The notes under the pieces were generated by a model that did no database searches, was not told where the DNA came from, and was given only the letters and a program-made list of their open reading frames with translations. A DNA stretch of 60,856 bases, filler included, from Collodictyon triciliatum (taxonomy: Eukaryota): the NCBI GenBank assembly GCA_043381765.1. It is 5 parts of 5 records of this genome, joined end to end, with 100 filler letters (N's around TTAATTAATTAA, not from the genome) between each part and the next. Parts side by side here need not be neighbours in the genome. Positions count along the whole stretch, not along the records: positions 7,728 to 22,515 come from JBHJMP010001773.1; 4 more parts are not named here. The stretch is one strand, 5' to 3'. A program made the position numbers and the translations under genes. Of this stretch, positions 318 to 58,878 are shown one piece after another (the first letter of the stretch is position 1; each line of letters starts with the position of its first letter).

Positions 318-3300
318 TTAATAACGCTGCGGTTCATCGTATGGACTCAAGGCTATTCCATAAATCGATTGCGAGCGTAGTTCTTCCCTGCGTTGTTTGC
401 CCGTGGCTGAGTGACTGCTCGCCGTCACCAAATCTCGTTGTCTTTGCTGAATAAACAAGTGGTGGAAGGGAATATCGACCCCGCTTATAGTCACCCCTGT
501 CAACCTGGATAGCAACGAATCAGGTATCTTCGATATTGGATTGTTGTTCAAATTGATGCTTTTAAGAGCAGTGAGTCTGGTGATATCCTCTGGTAGCTCT
601 GATATTTGATTAGATGAAATGTCTAAGCTGATTAAAAAAGCTTGCAGCAGCGCCAGCGAGTCGGGCAGTGATTCAAGTGACATACCTACCAGGTGCGCTG
701 TCGTCTGTTTCGTATTAAATAATTGCAAGATATTTTCCTCGACTTGACTCAATGGATTCATATCCAACGAAACATTTCTTAGTTTTGGTAGGTAAAATAG
801 TGAGGCCGGTATTTTTGAAAACATATTTGATGTCAGGGTGATTGATTGTAGATTGGTCAAAAGGGAACAACAGTCTGGTAAGTCCCAAAGCGCATTGTTT
901 GATAGGTCGATATGGCTTACTCTTGTTAATTGTAATATGTGGTGGTGCTCCAGGCGAGGGAGGCGGTTCTTTGTGTGAATAAACTCATCTGATTGTAGAC
1001 CTGTGCATAACTCTATACTTATATCAAGGCAAAATATCGGATTATCAGCAATATTTAGGTATGTCAACTCCTTCGTCTTTGGTAACCAAGCCGATGAAAA
1101 AGTCATCAACCTGTTTGATTGCAACGATAACTTGCGTAATGAACCCAAGTACGTGAACGTGGCTGGTAATGTACTGATCATATTCGAAGAAATACCCAAA
1201 TCTTCCAAGAACTTGATTGCCGAGATTCCTTCAGGAATTTCATCCAACAGGTTAAGTGATAAATCCAGCTTTTTTATAGTGGTAATCTCAAGCAAAGACT
1301 TTGGTAAGTTTTCCAATAAATTGTGAGACAGATTCACCACAAGTAATGACTGGAGCAACGAAAACGAAGAAGGTAGGCATCGAAGTAGGTTGTTGGACAA
1401 GTCAATCATTTTCATTTTTTCCCAGAATTCTGAGATGTATGGTATATGTGTGATGCGATTGTTATGCAAAGATAGGCATTCTACCTCGGAAAAACGATGC
1501 AACGTATGTGGGACACTACTCAAGTGTAAACTTTGAAAGCAAAAAATATTACAGTCTCTCTCTGCAGTTTTCATGCATTCTGAAAGAGTTATGTTGCTTT
1601 CTACATATCCTCGAATTTGCGTATCTTCAAGTGCTGCTGTCGAGTCAACGATAGTATCCATTCTCCAGTTGGGCCATGCCTTGAGAATGTCCATTTTCTC
1701 AAACAAACCTATATTCTCATCCGATGAAACAAGCCTATTTCCATACATCTCAACGGCACGGAGCTTGTTCATTTTGCCCATTGCAAATTTTGGGATACTT
1801 CTGAAATAATTGTAGCTAATAAAGAGCATTTCCAATCTTGTTGCATGACAAAGAGACTCTGGGAGCTCAGACACGTAGTTTTTTCGTATATTTAGAATTT
1901 TCAACTCTCCCAAATCAAACAACTCTTTTGGGATATTAACGAGAAAGTTTTTCTCCAGACTAAGAGAGCTCAAAAGTGTCCATTTCGCTACGGTGGGTGC
2001 TAAAATTCTTATTTTGTTGTCTTGTAAACTTAAAGATTGCAGCTTGACGAAAGGAATTTGTTCTTCCCATTCAGACTCTAGCCCAATATTATTCTTTGAT
2101 AGGTTTAAAGACTCAATATTGGTAAGAGTTGAAAATCCTATTGGTAAGCGGCTGATATAGTTGCTTGACAGATTCAAGCGCTTCATCCCGACACAATTAA
2201 GTATAGATTCAGGAATATCATAAATATGATGGCTTGAAAAATCGGCCATAACAAGTTGAGTCAAGATTCCGATGCCGTTGGGTATGGTCATGGGATAATT
2301 CAACTGAGGGATTTTCCATATGCTTTTCTTTTTTTCGTACATTTCCATCAAGTAGCGGTGTCCTGTTGATATTGGGTTGTTTTCAACTATAATTTGAATT
2401 CCAAATGAATTCGAGGCAAATTTGTCTGGGATATCGCTCAGCCGATTTTTGGTTGCATTAAGCATGGTAAGTTCTTTCATGAATGCAATAGATGAGGGAA
2501 TCGATGTTATCTCATTATGGGATACATTCAAATTATTTAGAGCTTGCATTTGTTCCCAATTATTTGGCAGCTCTGAAATTTTATTATGAGATATTGACAA
2601 AGTTACCAACGAAGTGTACCCCAGTATAGAACCAGGGAATAATTTGAATTTGTTTTGAGAAATGTTCAGATGCTTTAAGTAAGGCAAATTTACCGAATCA
2701 ATGGCAAAATCTTCTAATGAATTATGTTGAATGTTTAATACTTCCAAAACCGAAAATGATGTGGAGGAGAGGGTCTGGTGTAATACATTGATATTTCCAT
2801 GGGTGATGTGAAATTGCAATAAATTAGGTAGTTTAAGCATGAAGGAGAAATCTCCTATAATTGATTTCGAAATACTCAGGCACGTCAAATGGGATGGAAG
2901 CCAGTTCAAGTATGCAAACGACTCAGGAGGCGAAGCTATGTGATGTATAAATGAGCTTTCCATATTTAATATACACCTGGACACATTCAGTTCTATGCCA
3001 TCAAATAAGTTATTATTAATGCATAACATTTTCAAATTTGACATGGATGTTATTTCCGTAGGTAAGTGACGCAATTTATTATTGTCCAAATTCAAAAACT
3101 GCAGCTCTTTTAATAAATGTATTCCAGGAGGTAAAGCCCTGAGGATGTTGTCAGATAGGTTAAGTTTTAACAAATTAGTTAGATTCCATAAAGAACTGGA
3201 AATATCAACTAGATAGTTTCCAGACAAATTGAGACTGAGGAGATTTGTGAGACATGATATCTCTTCGGGTAGTACAACAACAGAACCTTGCACGTCGAGT

Positions 3301-4648
3301 CGCAGTAAATTTTGACACTCAAATATCTCTTTGGGGATGTAATCCTGATGACCGATGTCAACAACGAGAATCTTGATATTACTCGGAGACATTTTTGAAA
3401 ACACTTGACAGATGAGGATATCCAAGTTGGCATTTATTGCTCGCGGAGAATCACGAGACAGGAAATCATCTTTATAGAATAGTAGTCAGTTTTCTTTTTT
3501 TTCTTCAAAAATGAATTTATATTTTAAATGAATTTTGACTAGTTTTCAATAAGTTTAGTCCACTTACTAGAGCTGAACAATGGGATTTTAGGTCCACGCC
3601 AAAATGATATCAATTGTGATGAGAAATCATCAGATAAACTGGAAGCATTTTGTAGTTCTTGCGGTATGTGTGAAGGACTTCGGCCATAATCATCGTATAG
3701 GGGTGTATGAAAATCATGAAACGGGTTCTGTTTTGTTGTAGAATTTGGACAGTGGTATAAAATAAAATTATCATGTGATTTTGTGGGCACTTTCCCAATT
3801 ATAAGCGACATTATATCGATGTTATCTTGAATTAGAGGTTTTTCTACACCCAAAGAATGGTCTTGATTGCTTTCTGGGTTGTGTGCAGATGTTTCTATGC
3901 CATCGTATCCATTATCATAACCATCATAGTCATAGTCATCATAGCCGTCATCATCGTCATCATTGTAATCATTATGACTGTCATAATTGTAATATCCGCC
4001 ATGATACCCACCTCGATACCCACCACGATATCCACCACGATATCCACCACGATATCCACCACGATATCCACCTCGGGGCCCTCTGAGTGCCCCGCGAAAT
4101 TCACTTTCAAGCCTGTATTCACGCGGTTTGATATGACCCGATTGAATAAAACAGTTGTAATTGATTGACAGTTCACTGGTCAATTTCAAAAATTCTTCTT
4201 GATTTGTGTCTCTGTCAACGTCCATATAAACCTGATTAGGGTTACTATGATGACCAAAGGAATCAAGGTAACTTCGACCGATATAGTTGGCCTCAGCCTG
4301 ATAAGGAGCCCCACCAAATCGGAACGATTCGGGATAGTGCACGGATGTTTGAGATTTTTTCCTGAGGAATGAAATTCTTGCTACTGTCATGGTTTCACTG
4401 CGCCTGGAGGATGACCCGTGATAAGGAGATGCGTCTTCCGATGACTCCGGGGTCTCCGGGATGGGCACTTTGTCGCGTACCCTTCCAAAAGTAATGATGT
4501 GATGTGCCTCACTGAAACTGTTCCAATGGTGATGCGCCCAGTCGCGTGAAATAAACATTGTGCTTTTCTTATCCACGGAGAAATCTGCAGAGAAAAAGTG
4601 AGTGTCATTTAGTTTCTCAGACTGCCCTAACGCTCCTTTTGACGTCAT
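318..4648 (-). CDS. Large leucine-rich-repeat protein (~1410 aa) with an RGG/acidic low-complexity N-terminus; 2 exons (4648-3568, 3469-318)
   Basis: ORF 318-3425 consists of dozens of LxxLxLxxNxL repeats. ORF 3539-4648 joins it in frame through a GTAAGT...CTGAC...AAAG intron at 3567-3470 (FSS-N-DFLSRDSPRAINANLDILIC). Confidence 0.85.
3990..4076 (-). repeat. Coding 12-bp tandem repeat encoding (RGGY)n
   Basis: CCACCACGATAT units on +; translation RGGYRGGYRGGYRGGYRGGYRGGYHGGYY. Confidence 0.9.
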
Positions 4649-5695: not shown

Positions 5696-6990
5696 ATGGC
5701 CACTCCGGCTGGATCTTTCGTCTACAGGCAGGCTCACGCACGCGACATCCCATCGTTGAAATTACTTCATAATGCTCTTTTCCCCATAGAGTAAATTCTC
5801 CTCTCAATTGTGTATTGCTCTTTTATCCTGGCCTCATGGCATCTTCATCATTTATTTTCGTGCTTACCATTCTTTGAAAATAAGAAAGACTATTTTGAGT
5901 GTATGATTCATAGTCATTAATATTGGGATTTCTATTTTCTTTAATATTTCATCAAAGATACGACGAGAATTTCTATGAGAAAATCGCATCTGGTTCGTTC
6001 TATTCATTTCTTGCGTTTGACGAGAATGCACCCAGAGATGAGTGTCTGATCGGATTTATTACAATCGACTTCAAAGTAAAGGAAAGTGCAGAGGTACGTC
6101 TTATTCAACCTTCATATTTATTTAGTGATTGTTACATTTTCCTTCGATTTATTTTAGATAAGGAACGAATTTCATCTTTTCTTTTCTTTTTATTCTTTTT
6201 TGTTTTTTTTTGTTTTTTTTGTTAACGCATATCTCAAATGGTTGGTTGATAGGACGGTGATATTTTGGGAGACTCAAACGCAGATGCTCTGATGGCATAC
6301 ATTATGACCATCGGGGTACGCAAATCTCACCAGAAGCGAGGAATAGGTCGGCATACTTTCAAATAGATACTTGTCATGCAATCTCAGCGCTAATTATTTA
6401 GTTTCCAGTTTTTTTTTTTGCCTCGCGGCTGAATAAAACGGACTTTTTTTGTAACTTAAATAAATTCGGTATCAGCAAAGCGATTGTTAAGGCACGGAAT
6501 CGAATATAGCGCATCGTATTCAAACTGCAAAGGTATGCTGGTAAACGCTTGCCACCTTGCTTTCACAATCCACTTAATCATATAAAATTAATTTCGTTTA
6601 TTTTTTATTTTCTCTATTCAGCTAATTCGTCAAATTTATATAGTTATATTTCTTCATGTTATATTGCACAACGATATCGCTATAAGATTCTATGAAAAGA
6701 GTGGATTCCAAAGATGCAAGTACCATACGAACTACTATATTATAAATGCATCATTCTACAATGCATATACCTATGGTTATTTCATCAATGGTGGAAAACG
6801 GAATCAACCAGAACAATCGTGAGTATCTTCTTTTCCTTTTTGGATAAACTAACACTTATATTGATGTAATTGAACAGTAGGGTAAAGTGAAGAAGTAAAA
6901 TAGGAATGTGACAAAAATCTACTATTATTCAGGCTTAGCTGGTATGGATACCTCAAGCACGTCATACGCAAGCTCTTTGACTGGTTTTGA
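5696..6990 (+). CDS. NAA60: N-alpha-acetyltransferase 60 (NatF, GNAT fold), multi-exon
   Basis: Spliced translation includes LHNALFPIEYDENFY, AYIMTIGVRKSHQKRGI (acetyl-CoA motif A) and VIFLHVILHNDIAIRFYEKSGF...YYIIN...AYTYGYFINGG. It ends in an amphipathic WYGYLKHVIRKLFDWF* tail. GT-AG introns keep the frame. Confidence 0.85.
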
Positions 6991-7627
6991 ATTATTTCCT
7001 GACTATTTGGCTCCTCTTATTCCGAGGTACCAAAATGTATTGTATTAGAGCTTGACCAACCAATCACAACCAGCGTTGCACCCAAAATATTTTCCTTATC
7101 TGTGTTCAACATGTGGTTTTTTCATTGAACTTTTCTTTATTTTTACAATACTTTTAATTCATATTCTATTTAATATATTCATTATCACAAATATTATTGG
7201 AGGTTCTTTTGAATAAAATTATACTATCCTTTTCTGAATTGCATGGATGGAAAAGTAATATTCTTGCGCTACCGTATCTAACGAAAATACCATAAATAGC
7301 AAATAATTGACCGCTAGTCTTTTCCGTGCCACTTTTCTCTTTTTCCCTTTTTCCCCCTTTTTTCCCCCTTTTTTTCCCCCTTTTTTCCCCCTTTTTTCCC
7401 CCTTTTTTCCCCCTTTTTTCCTTTTTTCATTCGAGCATAGAGATCTGTAATTAAAAAGTGGAGAATTTCTGTATTTTGAATTGATTTATGTACTTTTTTT
7501 TATCCCTGTAGCCAGCAGAAATAAATATAATCATGCCCCTGCCGCTATACCTGTTGCAGCCAGATTATATTTTTTTATTTAATATTTCTTCTTTTTTTTT
7601 TCTTTTTTTTTTTTTAAGCTCTTTATT

Positions 7628-7727
7628 NNNNNNNNNNNNNNNNNNNNNNNNNNNNNNNNNNNNNNNNNNNNTTAATTAATTAANNNNNNNNNNNNNNNNN
7701 NNNNNNNNNNNNNNNNNNNNNNNNNNN
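7628..7727. other. Artificial scaffold linker
   Basis: N44-TTAATTAATTAA-N44 (stops in all six frames); identical at four places. Confidence 0.97.
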
Positions 7728-7787
7728 TCGACTTTTCCACCCTACTGTTATTATACAATTTGCGACCAACCATGTTTACTTTGTCCC

Positions 7788-7839
<52 letters not shown>

Positions 7840-8523
7840 CAAAATTATAAAGGATATTGGCAATCTTAGAGGCAGAAAATACGGCGAGATGGCTTTCAAC
7901 AGGTGTATCAGAATAGTCATGCCCCTGTAAGTCCAGATGAAATCCGATAGCTTTCCACTATTATCTGGATTGACGAAAGCAGGAGCTTTGATGAATCCAA
8001 GAAACAACCTGAATGATATAATAGTATGATTAGCAATATACTAAGTTTAAAAAACTTAATAATAATCATTCTATTCCTATAATCAATTTATATTTTTTTC
8101 GTTTATGTAATATTATTTCAAAAATGACAAATAAGCCCTTGCCTTGTCCCAGACAGAACCCACCCTATTAACCTGCCACCAAACATGCATTTCAAAAAAG
8201 CACACTATCCACACTTGCGGCGGTAATCATGTTGTTTGAGGCCGATATGTTGACTTTCGGTCGCAATGGCTATACGGCCGTCCTTTCGAACCCGCCGAAT
8301 CAGCTCTCAGCGTTTTGTCTCAAATCACTTATAAAAAACTTTATGTGTTTGTTTGCCACAATGCGCATATTATGAAAGCCTCGGTAGGTGCTTAATTTTA
8401 CCTGAATTGATTTTATGCAGTTTTTTTCTTTTTTTATTATTAAATTGACTAATTGATTAATGTTTTATTAAAATTGAAACTTCGGTAGTTTTCTAAAGGA
8501 AATAGTAAAACCAAGACTTTCAG

Positions 8524-10400
8524 ATGAATAAAAGAAAACGCCTTGAGTCTGAGAATCTGAAGTCTGTAAAACCAGACTATCGAAATCTGAAAACATCTCA
8601 AAAGTCGATTGTAAAGAATCCGGATGACTATGACAAAATCAACGATACGGTTTTATTGTGTCATAATTTGGTTACCGACACTTATCTGTTTGTAAGATGT
8701 TGCATATTGAAATCACAACAACACCCAACAATCGATGAAAAGTTTTTGTACGCTTTAAAGACAGTCGGGGTTGTTTCACAAGATAGAACCACAAGTTTTT
8801 TTTAAAACATCCAGATGAGTTAAGATATGATGAATTTTTATCTCAATGATTTTCGATTCCTTTTGTCCCAAGAAGAACGCTTTCCGTTGTTTGGATTGTC
8901 TCATATATTATGGTACCTGGCGAAGCAAATGTTAACAGCTTATCATAATAACACCAAGGACATTTTGTAAAGAGGCTACTGCGCTTTATAAATCAAACAG
9001 TTCCTAAATATGAGAGTATTACGAAAGTTATTAAAAAGGCAGACTTACAGAATTTTAAAAAAAAAAGCCATCTTCATGAAACCCGAAATACCGGAACAAT
9101 ATAAAGGATGGGCTGCAATACATTTGCATCATATCATTCCCAGCGATATTGTAAATGGTATCGAATATGACATCAAAGTCAATACAAATAAGTATATTCC
9201 ATGTATGATTCACATGAATCGCATTTTTTGAGGGCATTGGAACCAAACCGTTTCAACCATTCTCTATAAGAACTAACAATACACCATGCCATATTAGCCT
9301 AGATGCTGCATGCTTGATAGATCTATTAGTATTATCTGGAAAAACAAAATTATTGGATAATATATCAAGATGCAAAGAGACCCTATGGGATAAGTTCTTT
9401 GAAATGAAGAAGAGGGTCTTTCATCAAAGAGTCTACAATTTTAAATACATGATACAAACAGACAGCTTGGCGGTGTCATTATTGTTTGAAGAGAATGGGT
9501 TTTCAAATTCAAAATTCAAATATGATCAAAAACAAAGAATATGTCTATATAGATGAGTTTTCCGAAGAGCAGCTATCTTTGTTAGGGATAATAATAACAG
9601 TTGGAGTGGACGCAGGCAAGTTTAATTCGGTTTACATGGTGGATGAGACAGGCAAGAAATTACGTTGCACGGCACACCAAAGAAGACATGATAGCAAATC
9701 TCTTGAAAATCACAAAATACTCTTGCGCGAGAAAGAAAAGTGCAATCCTTTTCGGATACGCATGGCGACAGATTTACAAATTGTTGTTTCTTTTGGTCCC
9801 AAAACTTTTGAAGAGAATCAGCAGTTTGAGACATTAAGAATATCTTTAATCGATTTAGAGACACAACTGAAACGTAATTCATGCACGGTCGATTATGAAA
9901 AATTTCGGGGATATGTATCTATGAAATCAAGATACCACATAGTATTTTCCGGATTTTATGAACACGTAACTTTTCGTAAGATGAAATGGAGACAGTATGT
10001 TAATACAAAAAGAAGTGAACAATTGTTTATGGACCGAATCGAAAAGACATTTGGCAAGGATGTTGTACTGGCGTATGGAGACTAGAGCAGAAAATCTCCG
10101 ATGAAACATTTTATGCCAACAAATGGAAGAGGATTACGAAAAATATTATCCAAACGTTTTGAAACAGTTAGTGTAGATGAATTTAGAACCTCCAAGATGT
10201 GATGCAACTGCGAAAAAGAGCTGGAATATGTAGCACTGAAAGGAAATACAAAAAAGTATATATGTCTCATATGTAAAGAATGCAATCGCTCAGAAAGCAA
10301 AGAAACTGTATTCTTGACAAGGGACTTAGCAGCACTAATAATATACTCAAGAAAATTCTTTAATCCTTCAAAATATTCATACACCTTCCTCTTTTAAAAA
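8524..10400 (+). pseudogene. Fanzor1: Fanzor1 (TnpB-like RNA-guided RuvC endonuclease), disrupted by frameshifts and stops
   Basis: Motifs: YMIQTDSLAVSLLF; RuvC-I VGVDAG (Asp 9609-9611); YGD[W>TAG]S; RuvC-II VDEFRTSK (Glu 10179-10181, the rearranged position typical of Fanzor); zinc finger CNC...CKEC; RuvC-III TRD (Asp 10323-10325). Confidence 0.9.
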
Positions 10401-10404
10401 GAAA

Positions 10405-10495
10405 AAGGCTGTTAGGTCTTTCCCTGGCAGCCTTCACCACTACACAACCTTTGTGAAAAAAGTGGTGAGGCCTTGGATACTGGCGACCAGGTTTA
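10405..10495 (+). ncRNA. Putative omegaRNA scaffold of Fanzor copy 1
   Basis: Three adjacent hairpins at the ORF 3' end: 10407-10416/10423-10432; 10434-10441/10461-10468 with inner CACAA/TTGTG; 10469-10476/10487-10493. Conserved in copy 2. Confidence 0.65.
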
Positions 10496-11094
10496 ACGAA
10501 TCGAAAGATGGTATACTCCTAGTAAATAAAACAGATGACAACAAATTAGGGCAATCTTGTTTTGCAAACAAATGAAGCGTGTAGGATATCCCTCCTGTGA
10601 CAAGCCCTTCCAGTTTTCCGTGTCTTTTATCTCAGATACATATTGTCCAATCCTTATGCGATGGATAATGTAGCCACCTTGCATAAGCCAACAAGTATAG
10701 CCAAAAAAATAAATAAAGATTTAACTTTCAAAAGTCATGGGCTGATTGGTAAACATGAGGAGGCAGACAGAAAAACATTTACAAGCCTGTAGGCTACAGA
10801 TACATGAGTTTTCTCGAAGTAGATTGATAAAGATTTTTACACATGGTCGATGATGTTTATAGGAAGTTTGGGGATTGGGTATGGCCAGAAATTGAAACTC
10901 AGGATAAAAAAATGGACGCAAGGAACGGGAGATAAGCAAAATGCGTGCTAGTATTTCAGCTCAGGAAGTGACCCAACTCGATGAAAGTTAGGTTGGTTGG
11001 GGCCAGGTGGATGTGTGAACTCAGGTGATAAAATGAATGGAGCGGATGGCGATGCGGGAGGAGACTGTCATGAGACGGTTTCCAAAGTCGAGCC

Positions 11095-12366
<1,272 letters not shown>

Positions 12367-17966: not shown

Positions 17967-19370
17967 TTAGGGAGTATGGTCCCTCTCTATCTCCTCGTAT
18001 TGAGATTTATCTAAAAGAATACTGTGACTATCCGAGTATAGTACGTAATGTTGAATAATGAAAAACAAATCGAAGAAGATAGTCTCGATGCTGAGGATTA
18101 GTTTCGGGATGTTGCTTGTAAGCTCAGAGTAATCGTCTGTATCATTTACAATCAGCTGAATGAAATATGTTTGGGAAGAATAATTCATACTCTTGGCACG
18201 CATGATTATACGAGACTGCACATTAAAATATTCATATTAGGTTATACCCGAAAAATGATGAAGTGATTTTGAACAGATTGGGACATTAATATATAAATGA
18301 AGACAGTGTGACCTTCGATTTCGGCATCAATAAGTAGTTGGAAAAAGGACAGCACACCCCCAACAATATCCAGTATGATGTTATGAATACTCCAGCCTGC
18401 CGTACTTTTTCGATTATAGTTTATGTACGCCTGTTGAGAAAAATGAGAAAGTATCACCATTTTTATATTCAGCAGTGTTGATCAATTTCTTTTTGAACGT
18501 AAGCTCCCTCTTCATTCATATGCGGTTATATAGTTTTAAGTTTTATGAGTTGTGTACAAATAGAAATTATGAGCCTAAATGAAGGGTTGGATATACCTGA
18601 GGCACGTATTTCACAAACGAAACTGCTGTCTTCACATACCCATATATATCAATTGATGTACCCCATTCCACAGAACTTGTACCACCCAAGATAAGTGCCA
18701 GAATCATCGTGAGTACAAAAGACAATGAAACGCCGCAACAAATTCTCGAAGGTCTTTGTCCGTTATTCTAAATAAAAGATAATCTTTTTAAGAAGGCAGA
18801 TAAACTAGATTATGAGGTCAATTGCTTGATTATTGCGGCTAGAAACCATTATAAATGCTTTTCATCGGGTCAGATAACATGGCCATCAGTCTCGCTATTA
18901 ATGAATGGATGAAATACTGGGACAAATGTTTGCACCAATCGAAGAAAATTTGCTGACCGACCTCATATATTGCGCATTGGCCCACGGTGAAAAGAGTCAA
19001 AACCAACGCGTGAATGGAAAAAAATACGTCGTTTGCTTTGATGCTGTCTTTCTTTTCCCCATATGAATAGTATATGTTGCATACTGAATATGCAAAGAAT
19101 CCGATGGCGTTGTACAGAAGAAAGTCAAACGACAATCCAACCACACTAGAGTGATATCAAGAATAGAACGCATGAGGAAATGCTGCATGGCCACCTTAAG
19201 CCCAATTATTACGAATGAAAAGTACATCCTCGTTTAATGAATATGTGAGTCAAGAACCTTTTTCGTTGGTAGTTCAGAATTACTTGTGTATAAAAGGATA
19301 CACTCCATGATGTAAAGTATATCCATCCAATCACCTCGGACAAGATTTCGAGGTTATCGGTTGTCGTCAT
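17967..19370 (-). CDS. CTNS: Cystinosin (PQ-loop lysosomal cystine transporter), multi-exon
   Basis: [98 protein letters not shown] sorting-like motif near the C-terminus. Confidence 0.93.
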
Positions 19371-20366
19371 CTTATGCTTTGAATCAAACCTAGGTTCAGA
19401 GAGAAGAGGAAGGAAAAAGGAAAAGACACCGCGACAAGAAGAAAAAGGAGAGAGAGAGATAGAAAAAGGAAAGAGAATGTGTGACATTAGAACCACAGAA
19501 TCACATGTCAATAAGCTTTGAACCTTCGATTTATCCAGCACAACCCGCTTGACATAGTTGTGGTGTGAGGCCGAATAGAATGAATTTTTAGTCATCAGTA
19601 AAGCTCTCTTCGTTTTATTATTTCTTAGACATTTGTTTGTTTTTCTTTTCCCAACTCCAATCCCAACCATTCGAAGCAAACCTCGGAAAAGCGCATGGGA
19701 TGCAAATGCTAGCGGGTCGTTTTTTTGCACCATTCTGTGCCCAATGTACATCTTGCTGGTTCATATGAGCAAGTAAAGGAGGGAAAGAAAGAAGAAGAAA
19801 ATACGAAGCAGAATAAATCCCAGTATATTTTAATTGTGCTGATTGAGTGCACCGGTCAAGCTTCGTGCTTCATATTTTTAACCTCCACCTGTTGGTCTAC
19901 TCATGGCTTGTCTTCTGCTCCCATGTCCGACGCGGTAACTCCTATGGATATGAGCTTATCCTTGTTCAACGCGCTTTTGCTTCGCAATTTCCAAATAACC
20001 AGCGCGTCGATTAAATTACACTGCTAGCGTTTGTTTCAAGTTCAAGGGTTGTTTGAAAATAATATAACAACAATTAGATAATATATCCAGGTGTGTATTC
20101 ACGAAATATGGAGTTGCGAATGGTGTTTGGTTCTGGGCAAGCGCGGGCAATCGGGAAGGTTGAATCTCATCTAATCAAGATGATAGAATTTGTTTGTGTG
20201 TGTGTTTTTCTCCTCTGAATATATTCAAGCGTTGGAAACGAATACGGAAGCTGGTGGGGAAAAGAGCATTTTATTTCTTCTGTGATTTCCTGTGTGGGTA
20301 TCCCCATTCATGTGCCTTTTGTTTGCAGAGCCCATATCAGCTTTGTTCCATTTGCAGAACAAAGAG

Positions 20367-22515: not shown

Positions 22516-22615
22516 NNNNNNNNNNNNNNNNNNNNNNNNNNNNNNNNNNNNNNNNNNNNTTAATTAATTAANNNNNNNNNNNNNNNNNNNNNNNNNNNNN
22601 NNNNNNNNNNNNNNN
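22516..22615. other. Artificial scaffold linker
   Basis: N44-TTAATTAATTAA-N44. Confidence 0.97.
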
Positions 22616-37393: not shown

Positions 37394-37493
37394 NNNNNNN
37401 NNNNNNNNNNNNNNNNNNNNNNNNNNNNNNNNNNNNNTTAATTAATTAANNNNNNNNNNNNNNNNNNNNNNNNNNNNNNNNNNNNNNNNNNNN
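37394..37493. other. Artificial scaffold linker
   Basis: N44-TTAATTAATTAA-N44. Confidence 0.97.
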
Positions 37494-43899: not shown

Positions 43900-44539
43900 G
43901 TATGTTTTTTTCACTTGCTTTCGTNNNNNNNNNNNNNNNNNNNNNNNNNNNNNNNNNNNNNNNNNNNNNNNNNNNNNNNNNNNNNNNNNNNNNNNNNNNN
44001 NNNNNNNNNNNNNNNNNNNNNNNNNNNNNNNNNNNNNNNNNNNNNNNNNNNNNNNNNNNNNNNNNNNNNNNNNNNNNNNNNNNNNNNNNNNNNNNNNNNN
44101 NNNNNNNNNNNNNNNNNNNNNNNNNNNNNNNNNNNNNNNNNNNNNNNNNNNNNNNNNNNNNNNNNNNNNNNNNNNNNNNNNNNNNNNNNNNNNNNNNNNN
44201 NNNNNNNNNNNNNNNNNNNNNNNNNNNNNNNNNNNNNNNNNNNNNNNNNNNNNNNNNNNNNNNNNNNNNNNNNNNNNNNNNNNNNNNNNNNNNNNNNNNN
44301 NNNNAAAATGAAGGCATTTTGAAGGAAAAAAAAAGTACCAACCTGCGCTCCCACTGTCAACGTCATTCAGAACGTACTCGGACAGTCCAGCAGCCAGTAA
44401 CATTACTATGTCATATTAGAAGAGCCCTTTTCCACGCCGAAGAAAAGGGGACAATGAGTTTTTTTTTTATTGTTGTTTTTCACAACCTTTCAATCCTTAC
44501 CTTGGTGAGTCTAGGAGGGATGTCGCAGACAATAGGATG

Positions 44540-45739: not shown

Positions 45740-45830
45740 TAAACCTGGTCGCAAGTATCCAAGGTCTCGCCACTTTTTTCACAAAGATTGTGCAGTGGTG
45801 AAGGCTGCCAGGAAAGACCCAACAACATGT
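45740..45830 (-). ncRNA. Putative omegaRNA scaffold of Fanzor copy 2
   Basis: Same three hairpins as copy 1; substitutions in stem 1 give G-U pairs. Confidence 0.6.
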
Positions 45831-47714
45831 TTTTTAGAGGAAGGTGTATGCATTTTTTGAAGGATTAAAGGAACTTTGTTGAGTATATTATTAGCGCTGT
45901 TAGAGTCCCTTGTCGAAAATACACTTTGTTTGCTTTCTGAGCGATTGCATTCTTTACACATGAGACATCTATACACTTTTTTTTTGAATTTCCTTTACGG
46001 TTTCATATATTCCAGTTCTTATTCGCAGTTGTAGCACACCTTGAAGGTTCTAAATTCATTTAAAATAAACGTTTCAACGTTTGGATAGTTTTTTTTCGTA
46101 ATCCTCTTCCGATTGTTGGCATAAAATGTTTCATCGGAGATTTTCTGCTCCAGTCTCCATACGCCAGTACAACATCCTTGCCAATTATCTTTTCGATGCT
46201 GTCCATAAACAATTGTTCACTTCTTTTTGTGTTAACATACTGCCTCCATCTCACCTTTCGAAAAGTTACTTATTCATAAAATCCGGAAAGTTCTAACCGG
46301 AATCTTGATTTCATAGATACATCCGAAACTATTCATAATCGACCGTGCATGAATTATATTTACTCAATTCTGTCTCTAAATCGATTAAATATGCTCTTAA
46401 TGTCTCAAACTGCCGATTCTCTTCAAAAGTCCTGAAACCAAAAGAAATAGCACTTTGTAAACATGTTGCCATGCATATCCCTGAAGCATTGTACTTTTTT
46501 TTTCTCGCGCAAGAGTATTTTGTGATTTTTAAGAGGTTTGCTATCATGTCTTATTTGATGTGTCGTGTAACGTAATTTCTTACCTGCCTCATCCACCATG
46601 TAAACCAAATCAAACTTGCTTGCATCCACTCCAACTATTTTTTTGTCGCTAATAAAGATAACTGCTCTTCGGTAAGTTCATCTATATAGACATATTCTTG
46701 GTTTTTTTGATTATATTTGGATTTCGAATTTGAAATACCTTTCTTTTCAAACAATAATGACACCGCCAAGTCGTCTGTTTGTATCATGTATTTAAAATTG
46801 TAGTCTCTTTGATGAAAGACCCTCTTCTTCATTTCAAAGAAATTATCTCATAGTCTCTTTGCATCCTGACATATTATTATTTAATATTGTTTCTCCAGAT
46901 AAAAAATACAAATCTATCAAACGTGCAGCATCCAGAGTAATATGACATGGTATATTGTTAGTTCTTATAGAGACTGGTTGAAACTGTTTGGCTCCAATGT
47001 CCTCAAAAATGCAATTCATGTAAATCAGACATGGAATGTACTTATTTGGATTGACTTTGACGACATATTCGATAGCTTTTACAATATCGCTGGGAATCAT
47101 ATAATGCAAATGTGTTGTAGCCCATTCTTTATATTGTTCCGGTATTTCGAGATTCTTAAGATGGCCTTTTTTTAACTTTCGTAACTCTACCTTTTTAATA
47201 GCTTCCGTAATATTCTCGTCTTTAGGAACTGTTTGGTTTATAAAGTACACTAACCTCTTTACAAAATGCTCCTTAATGTTATTATGATAAGCTGTGAAGA
47301 TTTGCTTCGCCAAGTATGGTAATACATGACACAGCCTAACCAACGGAAAGCGTTCATATCGGGACTAAAGGAATCGAAAATCATTGAGATAAAAAGTCAT
47401 CATGTCTTCACTCATATCTGGTTTTTTTTTTTTAATCTTGTGTGTCTATCTTGTGAAATTATTCCGAATGTCTTTAAAGCGTACAAAAAAAAACCATTTC
47501 ATCGATTGTTGGGAGCTGTTGTGATTTCAATATGTAACATCCTGCTAACAGATAAGTGTCGGTAACCGAATTATGACACAATAAACCCGTATCGTTGATT
47601 GTGTTATAGTCATCCGCATTCTTTACAATCGACTTTAGGGATGCTTTCACATTTTGATAGTCTGATTTTACAGACTTTATATTCTCAGACTCAAGACGTT
47701 TTTTTTTTTTTCAT
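45779..47714 (-). pseudogene. Fanzor1: Fanzor1, disrupted
   Basis: YLAKQIFTAYHNNIKEHFVKRL, YMIQTDDLAVSLLF, IVGVDASKF (RuvC-I), YGDWSRKSPMKHFMPT, NEFRT (RuvC-II), CYNC...CKEC, TRDSNSANNIL (RuvC-III). Confidence 0.9.
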
Positions 47715-48242
47715 ATGGAGTCTTTGTTTTACTTTTTCCTTTGAAAACTACCGAGTTTTCAATTTTAATAAAACTTAAGGCAATCAGTCAATTTAATTTA
47801 AAAAAACTGCGCAAAATCAATATATGTAAAACTAAGCATCTACCAAGACTCTCAAAATGTGCACATTGTGGCAAACAAACACACACAAAGTTTTTTACAA
47901 GTGATTTGAGACAAAACGCTAAGAGCCGATTTGGCGAGTTTGAAAGGATGGCCTTATAGCCATGGCGACAGAAAGTCAAGATATCGGCCCCAAACAACAT
48001 GATTACCGCCGCAAGTGTGGATAGTATGCTTTTTTGGAATGCATGTTTGACGGCAGGTTTATAGCGCGGGTTCTTTCTGAGTCAAGGCAAGGACTTGCTT
48101 TCCATTCTTTAATTTTAATGATAATGTCACAAAATGGAAAATAAAATATAAATTGATTATAGGAATAGAATGATATTATAAAGTATTTTTAGCCTTATTA
48201 TACATACTAGTTATACTATTATATTATTCAGGTTGTTTAATA

Positions 48243-49882: not shown

Positions 49883-50275
49883 TGCTGCATTATATATTGG
49901 AAGTTTTCAGTGACGTCATGACGCAGTAACGTGAAAACAAAGCTATTTTCTCAGTATAATTTATTCAAAATACAAGAATATCCGAAAATCTATTTTTCAA
50001 TAATTCACATTTTGAAAATTTAAAGGATTGTTTTCATAGTACCTCAGCGAAGGAGTGAACGACTGCATTATATTGATCAATACTGTGATTCTTATTGGGC
50101 ATTTTTTTCGGACAATATTTTTAGGAAATGGAATAAGCAACATGTACATTCTGCGTTTCATGTAGAATTCCGCGTATTCTTCATTCAACCAAATTGCTAT
50201 TATTTAGGAAGCAGCAGACAACACAATTTGCAGCTGACTCTAGGGATGATAAAAATTAGCACTAAGGATTTTATA

Positions 50276-51407
50276 ATGCCGAATAAGTTATTTTTGGTTG
50301 TTGCGTTTTTTGTAGCAGCAATATGTTATTTAACACTGTGGAATCAGGTAGATTTGAGTTCTTCATACATTTCGTGGAACCATTTTGATATCAGGCAAAG
50401 GAAAATATTGCAAACACCGGTGACTCAGTACAGCAGTGAAAGTCAGATAGGGCAGAAAGATTCATATCAAGATGAGATGTATTCACAGTATGTTGGCCAA
50501 CATGGAGCAGTTGTAATTTCTGTTTGTAACACGGTAAAACATAGGTTTTGTGATTTCGTTAAGTCTTCGAATTGGAACGGTGCCATGTTACATATCATAG
50601 GTTTTGGAGCTCAATGGAACAGAAATGTTAATAAACTGTTTGCGTTGAGGAACGAAATAAAAAATTATGATAATGGAACAGTAATAATTTTTTGTGATTG
50701 TATGGATGTCGTTATCAATGAAAGATTCGCAGATATTGTTAAAAAATTAAAGAAAAGAGGGTTGACATGATAGTTTCAGTCGAATACAACTGCTGGCCTG
50801 ATGATGTGATAACGAGGCTCAACCCTTCCATCACGGAGACCACTAATGGATGTGTTAGAGCCTACGACATGGTCGGGTCACACAACACTTGCTTCAAAAA
50901 CGGATTTGCCAATATTTTTTCAGGACATAAACTCGTCTTTTACTAAATATTTTTGATTTAAAAAATATTAGACCCCGATACATCAACTCCGGGACTTATA
51001 TCGCATTTGCTGGAAAGCTCAAGGAGTTCCTTGCTGAAGCTTGCGATGAAGTTGAGAGGAAGAGATACAAAGGTCTAAGTGATCAGAAGTATTTCCACGA
51101 GGCATATCTAAGCGGAATGAAAGGTATTGAGTTGGACTACTTTGTAGAATTTTTTATGGCCATGCTCTTTATTGAGACTGCATGTTACAAATCCTGTCCG
51201 TGGGCCAAAAGAAATTACGACCACATGGTTTTCACACCGACCGGACGCAGGCCCTCTTTCATTCATTTTCAGTACAATACCAAGACAATTCTATATGAAA
51301 AATATATCAATTCCACGATGGTTGAGAAGCCAGCAAAGAATGGTTATCATACCCCTATGTTTTGGGTAAATGGATATCCTAGAGATATCAATAGTGTGTG
51401 TCCGTGA
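50276..51407 (+). pseudogene. PLOD/LH3-glycosyltransferase-like (GT-A) type II membrane protein with one apparent frameshift at ~50748
   Basis: N-terminal TM segment, IIFCDCMDV (DxD-like), then in the next frame VSVEYNCWP. After a probable intron (~50876-50971): RYINSGTYIA, SDQKYF, IELDY, PSFIHF. Confidence 0.65.
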
Positions 51408-52278: not shown

Positions 52279-52378
52279 NNNNNNNNNNNNNNNNNNNNNN
52301 NNNNNNNNNNNNNNNNNNNNNNTTAATTAATTAANNNNNNNNNNNNNNNNNNNNNNNNNNNNNNNNNNNNNNNNNNNN
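52279..52378. other. Artificial scaffold linker
   Basis: N44-TTAATTAATTAA-N44. Confidence 0.97.
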
Positions 52379-57740: not shown

Positions 57741-58878
57741 TACATCAATGGATGAGTTCTATATAACCTCAACTTTTTATCCTCGGGCGCTTATAGGCAT
57801 ATCAAGAGACACATATATTATAAAATCAATTCCAAAAAAATCAAATAATCCTAGTGCGAATATAAAATGTCAAAGGTTTGATCGTATAGATAGTTACTAA
57901 AATTAAGCGTGATGAGTCGATATAGAAAATAATAAAACAAAAATAAACAAAAAATAAACAAAAAATNNNNNNNNNNNNNNNNNNNNNNNNNNNNNNNNNN
58001 NNNNNNNNNNNNNNNNNNNNNNNNNNNNNNNNNNNNNNNNNNNNNNNNNNNNNNNNNNNNNNNNNNNNNNNNNNNNNNNNNNNNNNNNNNNNNNNNNNNN
58101 NNNNNNNNNNNNNNNNNNNNNNNNNNNNNNNNNNNNNNNNNNNNNNNNNNNNNNNNNNNNNNNNNNNNNNNNNNNNNNNNNNNNNNNNNNNNNNNNNNNN
58201 NNNNNNNNNNNNNNNNNNNNNNNNNNNNNNNNNNNNNNNNNNNNNNNNNNNNNNNNNNNNNNNNNNNNNNNNNNNNNNNNNNNNNNNNNNNNNNNNNNNN
58301 NNNNNNNNNNNNNNNNNNNNNNNNNNNNNNNNNNNNNNNNNNNNNNNNNNNNNNNNNNNNNNNNNNNNNNNNNNNNNNNNNNNNNNNNNNNNNNNNNNNN
58401 NNNNNNNNNNNNNNNNNNNNNNNNNNNNNNNNNNNNNNNNNNNNNNNNNNNNNNNNNNNNNNNNNNNNNNNNNNNNNNNNNNNNNNNNNNNNNNNNNNNN
58501 NNNNNNNNNNNNNNNNNNNNNNNNNNNNNNNNNNNNNNNNNNNNNNNNNNNNNNNNNNNNNNNNNNNNNNNNNNNNNNNNNNNNNNNNNNNNNNNNNNNN
58601 NNNNNNNNNNNNNNNNNNNNNNNNNNNNNNNNNNNNNNNNNNNNNNNNNNNNNNNNNNNNNNNNNNNNNNNNNNNNNNNNNNNNNNNNNNNNNNNNNNNN
58701 NNNNNNNNNNNNNNNNNNNNNNNNNNNNNNNNNNNNNNNNNNNNNNNNNNNNNNNNNNNNNNNNNNNNNNNNNNNNNNNNNNNNNNNNNNNNNNNNNNNN
58801 NNNNNNNNNNNNNNNNNNNNNNNNNNNNNNNNNNNNNGGGTTTCATGGCAATATGAACAATTAATTTTTCTTTATCAG

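Follow-up and report, generated by a model that had tools for sequence, protein, structure and literature searches.

Introduction

Fanzor1 proteins are eukaryotic relatives of TnpB and act as RuvC nucleases guided by an omegaRNA. Fanzors are under development as compact genome editors, and no other RNA-guided DNA nucleases native to eukaryotes are known. A Fanzor1 element is described here from Collodictyon triciliatum, in a stretch of 60,856 nucleotides (nt) taken from the assembly GCA_043381765.1 and called the window below. At least five contigs make up the window, linked by 44N-12nt-44N joints at 7628-7727, 22516-22615, 37394-37493 and 52279-52378, and two copies of the element lie in it on different contigs. 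Both very probably derive from a DNA transposon that carried a Fanzor1 gene, were inserted independently and have long been dead.

The prototype of the group is SpuFz1 (element SPu-1) of Spizellomyces punctatus (PDB 8gkh). The portion of PMC10432273 that treats its layout gives about 80 nt from the stop codon to the right repeat, a 75-nt scaffold and a guide of 14-15 nt. Fanzor1 genes of metazoans (Mayetiola, Hydra) and of TA-flanked Mariner elements, including those of giant viruses and of a probably virus-derived Hydra contig, are described in sections of PMC3627910, and those of arthropods in sections of PMC10432273. The text of PMC10530073 on this point reports Fanzor1 broadly in metazoans, with up to 122 copies per genome. 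For endogenous giant-virus Fanzor1 families of Chlamydomonas, 10.1101/2024.09.03.611062 describes a full-length form with an IS630-Tc1-Mariner transposase. A preliminary description of the window had called its family probably uncharacterised; as these accounts in PMC3627910 and 10.1101/2024.09.03.611062 indicate, Fanzor1 in metazoans and in giant-virus Mariner/Tc1 elements is already published, and the window family might itself be listed in the supplementary tables of Jiang 2023 or Bao & Jurka 2013.

The window family resembles SpuFz1 in its single intronless open reading frame (ORF) of about 630-650 amino acids (aa), in a family profile that aligns with SpuFz1 from end to end and in the alignment of the catalytic D, E and D residues. 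It differs in that both copies in the window are pseudogenes that lack a left end and a terminal inverted repeat (TIR), in the low protein identity, with similarity apparent only at the profile level, and in a longer upstream block (at least 520 nt). The tail from the stop codon to the right end is 39 nt in the window family, compared with about 80 nt given for SpuFz1 in the layout section of PMC10432273 and 70-99 nt in most viral relatives. The 3' RNA layout of these viral relatives agrees with that of SpuFz1, and they also share the roughly 30-nt TIRs with TA edges that the SPu-1 passage of PMC3627910 records.

GtFz1 of Guillardia theta and PpFz1 of Parasitella parasitica (PDB 9cer, 9cf0) gave the best single-sequence and profile matches. 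The omegaRNA of GtFz1 overlaps the coding end by 17 aa according to the part of PMC10432273 that deals with it, and the candidate of the window family must overlap the coding end too. The third catalytic position is Asn in GtFz1 as stated in an excerpt of PMC11423790, whereas Asp is kept in the window family. PpFz1 contains an inserted FRI domain without counterpart in the family profile, and the alignment is split there. The giant-virus Mariner/Tc1-Fanzor1 elements (PGv-1, HMa-1 and the Chlamydomonas virus Fanzor families A-C) were compared by their descriptions only; TA-flanked TIR elements likewise surround the window clade, whereas the window family has grown, in a cellular genome, to tens of diverged copies or more.

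Results and discussion

Extent and ends of the two copies

Comparison of the window with itself using BLASTN gave a single repeat match, 8002-10495 on the plus strand against 48238-45740 on the minus strand, with 84.99% identity over 2532 columns. Self-BLASTN and a right-end search revealed no third copy, further piece or "ghost" of the element in the 60,856-nt window. The parts of the two copies are as follows.

7963..8001, plus strand: 39 nt of family sequence at the left of copy 1, absent from copy 2 (contigs of sequencing runs X1 and X3 cover bin 7897-7993)
8002..10495, plus strand: copy 1, part common with copy 2 (85.0% identity over 2532 columns)
8002..8523, plus strand: upstream non-coding block of copy 1 (431 matches and 81 mismatches to copy 2)
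45740..48238, minus strand: copy 2 of the Fanzor1 element (self-BLASTN match)
47714..48238, minus strand: upstream non-coding block of copy 2 (homology to copy 1 ends at 48238)

In a global alignment the copies match at 2140 columns and mismatch at 323, and 26 indel events account for a further 67 gap columns. Identity per 100 columns was 69-93 all along the element and mostly 80-93, the transition:transversion count was 185:138, and the Kimura two-parameter distance was 0.145. The homology opens at AAACAACCTGAAT and closes at GCGACCAGGTTTA, and alignments of the ends found the sequence outside to be unrelated. Both right ends read ...GCGACCAGGTTTA and lie 39 nt past a common TGA stop codon. 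The right ends of the window family are of the ...CCAGGTTTA type, with ...GCGACCAGGTT as the terminal sequence of the element. The last letters at the right of both copies are ...GGTTTA, so that each ends in TA, from which no duplication is readable without a left end.

These results agree with the preliminary description of two colinear homologs on different scaffolds with unrelated outer flanks. Its count of about 11 differences over 160 nt near the YGDW motif compares with 10, 11 or 14 mismatches on recounting, depending on the frame, while the right ends that it had set at 10522 and 45730 are moved by the alignment to 10495 and 45740.

Of 512 aligned sites in the upstream block, 81 differ between the copies, a divergence similar to that of the coding part. 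The block was considered as an exon and rejected: in its sole long frame nearly every nucleotide change alters a residue, and no family match was found. A scan of the whole window with Rfam at gathering scores gave 0 matches.

Copy 1 starts only 235 nt from the start of its contig, which is typical of assembly-breaking repeats. The homopolymer-like T/A tracts at 7789-7837, just left of copy 1, and at 1-90 match one another at low complexity. Larger N gaps are present in the window at 43925-44304 and 57967-58837.

Assignment of the gene to Fanzor1

The longest ORF fragment, at 9453-10085 (210 aa), had only two matches in the PDB sequence set, both of them Fanzor1 (GtFz1, E 0.0044; SpuFz1, E 0.14). 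A Pfam scan of seven ORF fragments gave chance-level matches only. The closest intact relative in the protein collection, P0001, is a protein of 648 aa that is 60% identical to the 210-aa fragment, the next best homolog being 46% identical. P0001 matched GtFz1 (2.1e-28), PpFz1 (2.7e-24) and SpuFz1 (3.7e-23) over nearly its whole length. Pfam reported for P0001 only PF07282, below threshold (E 0.11). Among 8000 candidates scored there were 104 homologs at E <= 0.001; the protein collection lists 100 of these with PF26935, a family that the Pfam scan of P0001 did not report. A full-text literature search found no paper mentioning DUF8286 or PF26935.

A profile of 617 positions (A4), built from 52 family members, was compared with the same PDB set and matched PpFz1 at 1.1e-91, SpuFz1 at 1e-86 (profile positions 3-611 of 617) and GtFz1 at 4.9e-64. 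The next matches were two LaTranC entries at E 0.06 and 0.066. The N-terminal half also aligned to Fanzor1, with P0001 as well as with A4. From these sequence comparisons the gene is assigned to Fanzor1, in keeping with the dispersed Fanzor1 copies claimed in the preliminary description; a comparison with SpuFz1 had been proposed there as a check, and the family profile gave the end-to-end alignment reported here.

Five residues (D364, G521, E555, R603 and D604) are invariant in the 52-member alignment. Through the profile, D364, E555 and the R603-D604 pair are placed opposite the DPN (iDPNK), EYKTS (dEYKTS) and RD of SpuFz1. D604 aligns to residue 1000 of the SpuFz1 chain, which is D606 once a tag of about 394 residues is removed; D606 is named in the relevant part of PMC11423790 as the residue mutated by Xu et al. 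The Fanzor motif of Bao & Jurka, as given in an extract of PMC3627910, is D-X(125,275)-[TS][TS]-X-X-[C4 zinc finger]-X(5,50)-RD. In P0001 it is represented by D364, 193 residues, T558-S559, two residues, C562/C565/C587/C590, 12 residues and R603-D604. Two further residues are singled out in the same extract as conserved in Fanzor1, G500 and E536 in SPu-1-1p numbering, which are the glycine of the YGDW motif and the glutamate of E-x-x-T-S, respectively. In our reading of this motif description, made without a direct alignment, these correspond to G521 and E555 of the family, and both are kept in the two window copies.

The assignment is made because the similarity spans the whole length of the protein, and not because of the glutamate beside the zinc finger. 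The preliminary description had taken that glutamate, in EFRTS, as the Fanzor1 signature, while the portion of Jiang et al. 2023 that covers it (PMC10530073) reports it in all Fanzors and in a subset of TnpB. TnpB of the IS200/IS605 elements (e.g. ISDra2) is also a RuvC nuclease guided by RNA from the right end of its element. Compared with TnpB, Fanzors use a relocated glutamate beside the zinc finger, as set out in that portion of PMC10530073. The order D...E...C4...RD is described in PMC3627910 as common to all these families, so far as its motif section goes, and would also suit a Fanzor2 or a bacterial TnpB. There is practically no chance that the gene is either of these, since neither P0001 nor A4 found a Fanzor2 or TnpB entry at E <= 1 in the PDB sequence set, the three Fanzor1 entries stand at 1e-91 to 5e-64, and the N-terminal half aligns to Fanzor1 as well.

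The Lys- and Arg-rich N-terminus, MNKRKR..., resembles a nuclear localisation signal, which agrees with Jiang 2023.

Decay of the two genes

Lesions were called by frameshift-aware alignment of the copies to P0001. The remnants of the genes and the codons of their motifs are located as follows.

8524..10456, plus strand: Fanzor1 ORF remnant (pseudogene) of copy 1 to the common TGA stop, by alignment to P0001
9609..9611, plus strand: RuvC-I Asp codon of copy 1 (family D364, VGVDAG), aligned to SpuFz1 iDPNK
10179..10181, plus strand: catalytic Glu codon of copy 1 (family E555, DEFRTS), aligned to SpuFz1 dEYKTS
10200..10283, plus strand: C4 zinc-finger (TNB) region of copy 1, with a stop in place of C562 and with C565, C587 and C590 intact
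10320..10325, plus strand: RuvC-III Arg-Asp codons of copy 1 (R603-D604), with a frameshift directly after
45779..47713, minus strand: Fanzor1 ORF remnant (pseudogene) of copy 2, with its TGA stop at 45779-45781
46624..46626, minus strand: RuvC-I Asp codon of copy 2 (VGVDAS), by codon alignment
46055..46057, minus strand: catalytic Glu codon of copy 2 (NEFRTF), by codon alignment
45947..46036, minus strand: C4 zinc-finger region of copy 2, with all four Cys codons kept
45905..45910, minus strand: RuvC-III Arg-Asp codons of copy 2 (STRDSNSANNIL), by codon alignment

In copy 1 the segment 8524-10442 covers aa 1-642 of P0001, with 386 of 632 codons identical, and is interrupted by five in-frame stops (8803, 8821, 10083, 10200 and 10361) and five frameshifts (8959, 9039, 9226, 9527 and 10326). 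In copy 2 the segment 47710-45799 covers aa 2-640, with 369 of 629 codons identical, and carries six in-frame stops (47367, 46850, 46331, 46272, 46021 and 45997) and seven frameshifts (47494, 47432, 46869, 46652, 46503, 46325 and 46080). The copies had therefore been rightly called "full-length" as regards coverage of the 648-aa frame; the ORFs themselves are broken, and the left part of the element is missing. Judged from its sequence, neither copy can now make the nuclease.

The catalytic Asp, Glu and Asp codons are all kept in both copies. The preliminary description had credited both copies with every motif, which is true of GVD, (D/N)EFRT and RD, while in copy 1 stops have struck the YGDW, which now reads YGD-stop through loss of the Trp codon, and the first Cys of the zinc finger. 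In copy 2 the family-invariant Ser of this region is replaced by Phe (S559F, in NEFRTF).

No lesion is at a common site in copies 1 and 2. Over the 621 codons common to both, 426 residues are identical, the differences at codon positions 1, 2 and 3 number 111, 97 and 92, and the ratio of nonsynonymous to synonymous change (dN/dS) is 0.87. Because there is no common lesion and dN/dS is 0.87, our reading is that each copy was inserted with an open frame and then decayed neutrally.

Both copies carry P365A (GVDAG for GVDPG; 9612-9614 and 46621-46623) together with E391D, at positions that are invariant in the 52 members. These may be either traits of a subfamily master copy or signs that the master was already impaired.

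Copy number and full extent of the family

Nine public sequencing runs were found to share words with the element, each only 0.05-0.07 of those sampled, and no RNA run is listed among the nine. By our own estimate, an exact 31-mer sharing of 7% is about what is expected of a copy some 7% off its consensus when it is compared with consensus-like repeats. Contigs of four runs were placed on 7800-10700 at >=80% likeness. Run X1 placed 444 contigs on the element (52 at >=99%, 115 at 95-99%, 151 at 90-95% and 126 under 90%) and run X3 placed 411 (33, 104, 148 and 126 in the same classes). These contigs cover 28 of 30 bins, with up to 26 distinct contigs at one place. Runs X2 and X5, which are freshwater/subsurface metagenomes, gave 24 and 148 short contigs that are 80-99% like the element, a hint that the host or its kin might live in fresh water. 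Joints in the placed contigs revealed internally deleted variants of the element. The family is multi-copy, and the "high-copy" of the preliminary description gains indirect support from the 444 and 411 contigs at 80-100% likeness, which come from organisms that may be the host itself or its near kin.

Contig cover falls to about 0 beyond 10515, and the right end is therefore family-wide. To the left, the X1 and X3 contigs extend to bin 7897-7993, and copy 1 departs from the family sequence left of 7963. Loose contig ends before 7963/7966 (6+2 contigs in X1, 4+1 in X3), whose loose parts reach 255 nt, have, with an agreement of 0.74-1, a common consensus that is absent from both window copies. 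The family therefore runs on leftwards, and both copies are incomplete, broken off at 7963 and 8002, respectively.

The intact members that had been expected elsewhere did not appear: no intact protein closer than 60% identity was found, and neither the protein collection nor the scan of metagenome contigs contained an intact copy of the window's own family. The closest representatives are fragments of 68-84 aa with 61-86% identity, which are likely to be gene calls on other decayed copies. The protein representatives were clustered at 50%, which could hide some intact members.

The presence of only two copies in the window, on different contigs, is what duplication of a host segment holding one Fanzor gene would leave as well. 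Such an origin is most improbable, given that the homology stops within a few bases at both ends, that the flanks are unrelated, and that hundreds of diverged contigs cover exactly this unit with the same right end. The same sharp ends, unrelated flanks and diverged contigs bear out the earlier proposal of transposition in place of segmental duplication.

Transposon layout in giant-virus relatives

The nearest Atlas clusters by features are 92-100% viral, mostly Nucleocytoviricota. In IMG/VR, 526 of 598 pattern-matched stretches encode a relative, and many of the best 80 come from giant-virus bins. Metagenome contigs compared with the subfamily alignment A5 gave 97 pattern matches and six relatives, the best being 47% identical, and the window's own family was not among the six. 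With P0001 alone, a search of viral contigs gave 36 pattern matches and no relative. The best 80 of the 526 IMG/VR relatives and the six metagenome loci make up the 86 loci (L001-L086) considered below.

An open Fanzor frame is present at all 86 loci, 540-659 aa long in 85 (620-639 aa in 62) and about 780 aa in one. TIRs of roughly 28-30 nt, in which 26-28 of 28 positions match, bound the elements of the viral relatives; their outer edges both carry TA, and in the main group the left TIR is about 410-450 nt before the ATG. The position of the window's upstream block is occupied in the relatives by the spacer to a divergent transposase, or by the left TIR. A helix-turn-helix and DDE_3 transposase of Tc1/mariner-IS630 type is found upstream in 28 of the 86 loci, on the opposite strand in 27 of these. 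All eight loci of the subgroup nearest P0001 have it, at 314-402 nt from the Fanzor ATG; they represent about five distinct contigs (L003 is the same contig as L082, and L001 does not differ from it in this part). A single TIR pair encloses transposase and Fanzor in elements of 3.28-3.32 kb (L082, at 6629-9947; L081; L002; L001), and the derivatives L004, L083 and L084 (2.7-2.8 kb) retain only part of the transposase. In contrast to IS200/IS605, the relatives here have TIRs of eukaryotic type, TA edges and a DDE transposase instead of TnpA.

Near the element in L082 are helicases of the SNF2 and DEAD types and a fused capping enzyme/cap methyltransferase, together with a weak Rpb7-like match, a gene content that fits a giant virus. 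For a midpoint-rooted tree 181 sequences were used, the window copies being translated across their lesions with an X at each. The two copies grouped with P0001 (support 1.0) in a 35-member clade (0.954), itself within a 124-member clade (0.996) that contains all 80 IMG/VR loci.

RNA at the right end

Among the viral and metagenome loci, pairwise DNA matches across the stop codon end 70-99 nt downstream in 1382 of 1981 pairs, and conservation of the aligned tails stops at ...AAAGGTGTAA(A), past which they are unrelated. The conserved 3' RNA of L001-L086 starts about 50 nt ahead of the stop, extends about 90 nt past it (e.g. L007:7771-7916) and ends at the right end of the element. Its structure has four parts: two successive hairpins, the first in the end of the ORF, and a third that is enclosed by a long terminal stem. 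Derived from one of the aligned sequences themselves, this structure was 85.4% paired, compared with 47.5-53.1% when the partners were slid. Double-sided changes occurred in 16 of 29 pairs, in 80 cells, with 15-54 for the slid versions. None of 500 shuffles reached the observed value on four of five measures; on the fifth, further pair types, 2/500 did so. Alignment of the third hairpin is poor, and its pairing is 48-54%. From its covariation, this 3' RNA is a strong omegaRNA candidate for the viral clade.

GC-rich palindromic insertions were seen in a hairpin loop or in the terminal stem of the 3' RNA region (L018:3752-3931 and L021:7578-7757), and look like small secondary insertions.

The tails of the window copies contain the following features.

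10406..10495, plus strand: right-end tail of copy 1, two hairpins overlapping the ORF end, candidate omegaRNA scaffold (-40.4 kcal/mol)
45740..45830, minus strand: right-end tail of copy 2, the same two hairpins, weaker (-24.6 kcal/mol)

The fold of the copy 1 tail, with hairpins spanning 10406-10468, had a z of -3.17, with 1/200 shuffles as good. Within the hairpins of the last ~90 nt of both copies, two one-sided changes retain pairing through G-U. By analogy with the viral clade, the omegaRNA of the window family would lie in this tail.

Proposed mechanism

The complete element would be a TA-flanked, TIR-bounded transposon of Tc1/mariner type, moved by a DDE_3 transposase either encoded divergently upstream or supplied in trans. 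Its last ~90-130 nt, comprising the ORF end and the tail, would be transcribed as an omegaRNA scaffold that reads into the flank as guide, and the complex of Fanzor1 and omegaRNA would cut sites that match the guide next to a target-adjacent motif. Meers and colleagues are said to have found in 2023 that cutting by TnpB helps an element to persist or spread. For the window family, the TA target and the mariner-type partner are extrapolated from the viral relatives and may hold by analogy. The window copies match a published derivative form described as "Fanzor gene plus right end only".

Several observations weigh against two dead copies of such a transposon. The right end has no TIR partner in the window, its reverse complement matching only the two right ends, and the repeat search of the window found no terminal repeat pair; because neither copy has the family's left end, the absence of a TIR speaks of these copies and not of the family. 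No remnant of a transposase was found in the window by tblastn (best E = 4.3), and a hidden Markov model of 22 viral DDE_3 proteins gave, against the six-frame translated window, a best sequence E of 2.1 and a best domain E of 0.97. The proposed mechanism is consistent with these absences given the missing left part. Its source is a set of relatives with a protein identity of only 40-47%. The leftward extension of the family was read from 30-nt loose-end consensus lines of one contig placement, and X1 and X3, with only 7% of sampled words shared, may come from related species and not from the host. The tail of copy 2 folds no better than its shuffles (z +0.48, 136/200 as good). A covariance model of the viral 3' RNA (R1), run on the window with filters off, gave 29 hits, all at E >= 0.23, and none at 10350-10495 or 45740-45885. 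The viral origin of the relatives was checked on the single contig L082. In addition, the IMG/VR loci were picked by likeness to the query, so that their nesting in the tree is partly by construction; since, moreover, most of the proteins have no known host, the tree is evidence of kinship and not of the direction of transfer.

A solo Fanzor unit might also have moved by another route, as part of a Helitron, hAT or IS607-like element or by 5'-truncating copying, in which no mariner-type transposase took part. Copying of the last kind would explain both missing left ends, which differ between the copies (7963 and 8002), and the window has neither TIR nor transposase; furthermore, the relevant section of Jiang 2023 (PMC10530073) ties Fanzor1 clades to hAT, LINE (long interspersed nuclear element), CMC, Helitron and Mariner/Tc1. 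This route is nevertheless considered unlikely, as TA-flanked TIRs, often together with a DDE_3 gene, occur throughout the surrounding clade so far as its DNA context is visible, and both window copies end in TA at the right. A Fanzor1-carrying DNA transposon, present in two dead copies, is retained as the preferred reading.

Genomic neighbourhood

The other long ORFs of the window were scanned with Pfam, and the following domains were found.

10956-11468, minus strand: CFA20-domain exon (Pfam E 1.5e-36), 460 nt downstream of the right end of copy 1 and on the opposite strand
19209-19760, minus strand: PQ-loop repeat ORF (E 1.1e-05)
50024-50770, plus strand: PLOD glycosyltransferase-domain ORF (E 7e-07)
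318-3485, minus strand: uninterrupted ORF of 1055 aa on another contig, almost wholly leucine-rich repeat (LRR_8, E 8.7e-60)

These ORFs gave CFA20, PQ-loop, PLOD glycosyltransferase and leucine-rich-repeat matches or nothing, and none was of viral type. A LINE remnant on the truncated side of copy 2 was also considered and was not retained, Pfam having found nothing on the ORFs there.

The nearest relatives with known context are in giant-virus contigs, and Bao & Jurka 2013 judged the Hydra Fanzor1 HMa-1 to be virus-derived DNA, according to the passage of PMC3627910 that deals with it. The copies could on this basis be endogenised pieces of a giant virus, or viral or protist contamination, and not a resident transposon of the host. 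This is very unlikely, however: the CFA20 exon stands 460 nt from copy 1 and the PQ-loop and PLOD glycosyltransferase ORFs share the contigs of the copies, neighbours that argue against a viral or contaminant origin, and both copies are old neutral pseudogenes of a unit that is a dispersed repeat.

Significance

A new Fanzor family is a possible source of enzymes; here both copies are dead and the type of family is published. A by-product of the analysis is the well-supported covarying 3' RNA, a candidate omegaRNA with a sharp right end, of the abundant giant-virus clade. The lead that emerges is a single genome with a large, old expansion of Fanzor1 whose nearest kin are in giant viruses, which bears on crossing between virus and host. 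It can be suggested, tentatively and at low probability, that a Mariner-type Fanzor1 entered the host lineage from giant viruses, or is common to both, and that the element then multiplied to tens or hundreds of chromosomal copies. If this is true, this genome or those of close relatives may still contain a few intact, active copies, whose own omegaRNA would differ from the viral clade's. The importance of the family would rise if the host genome has intact copies, or if the kinship with giant viruses reflects transfer into the host.

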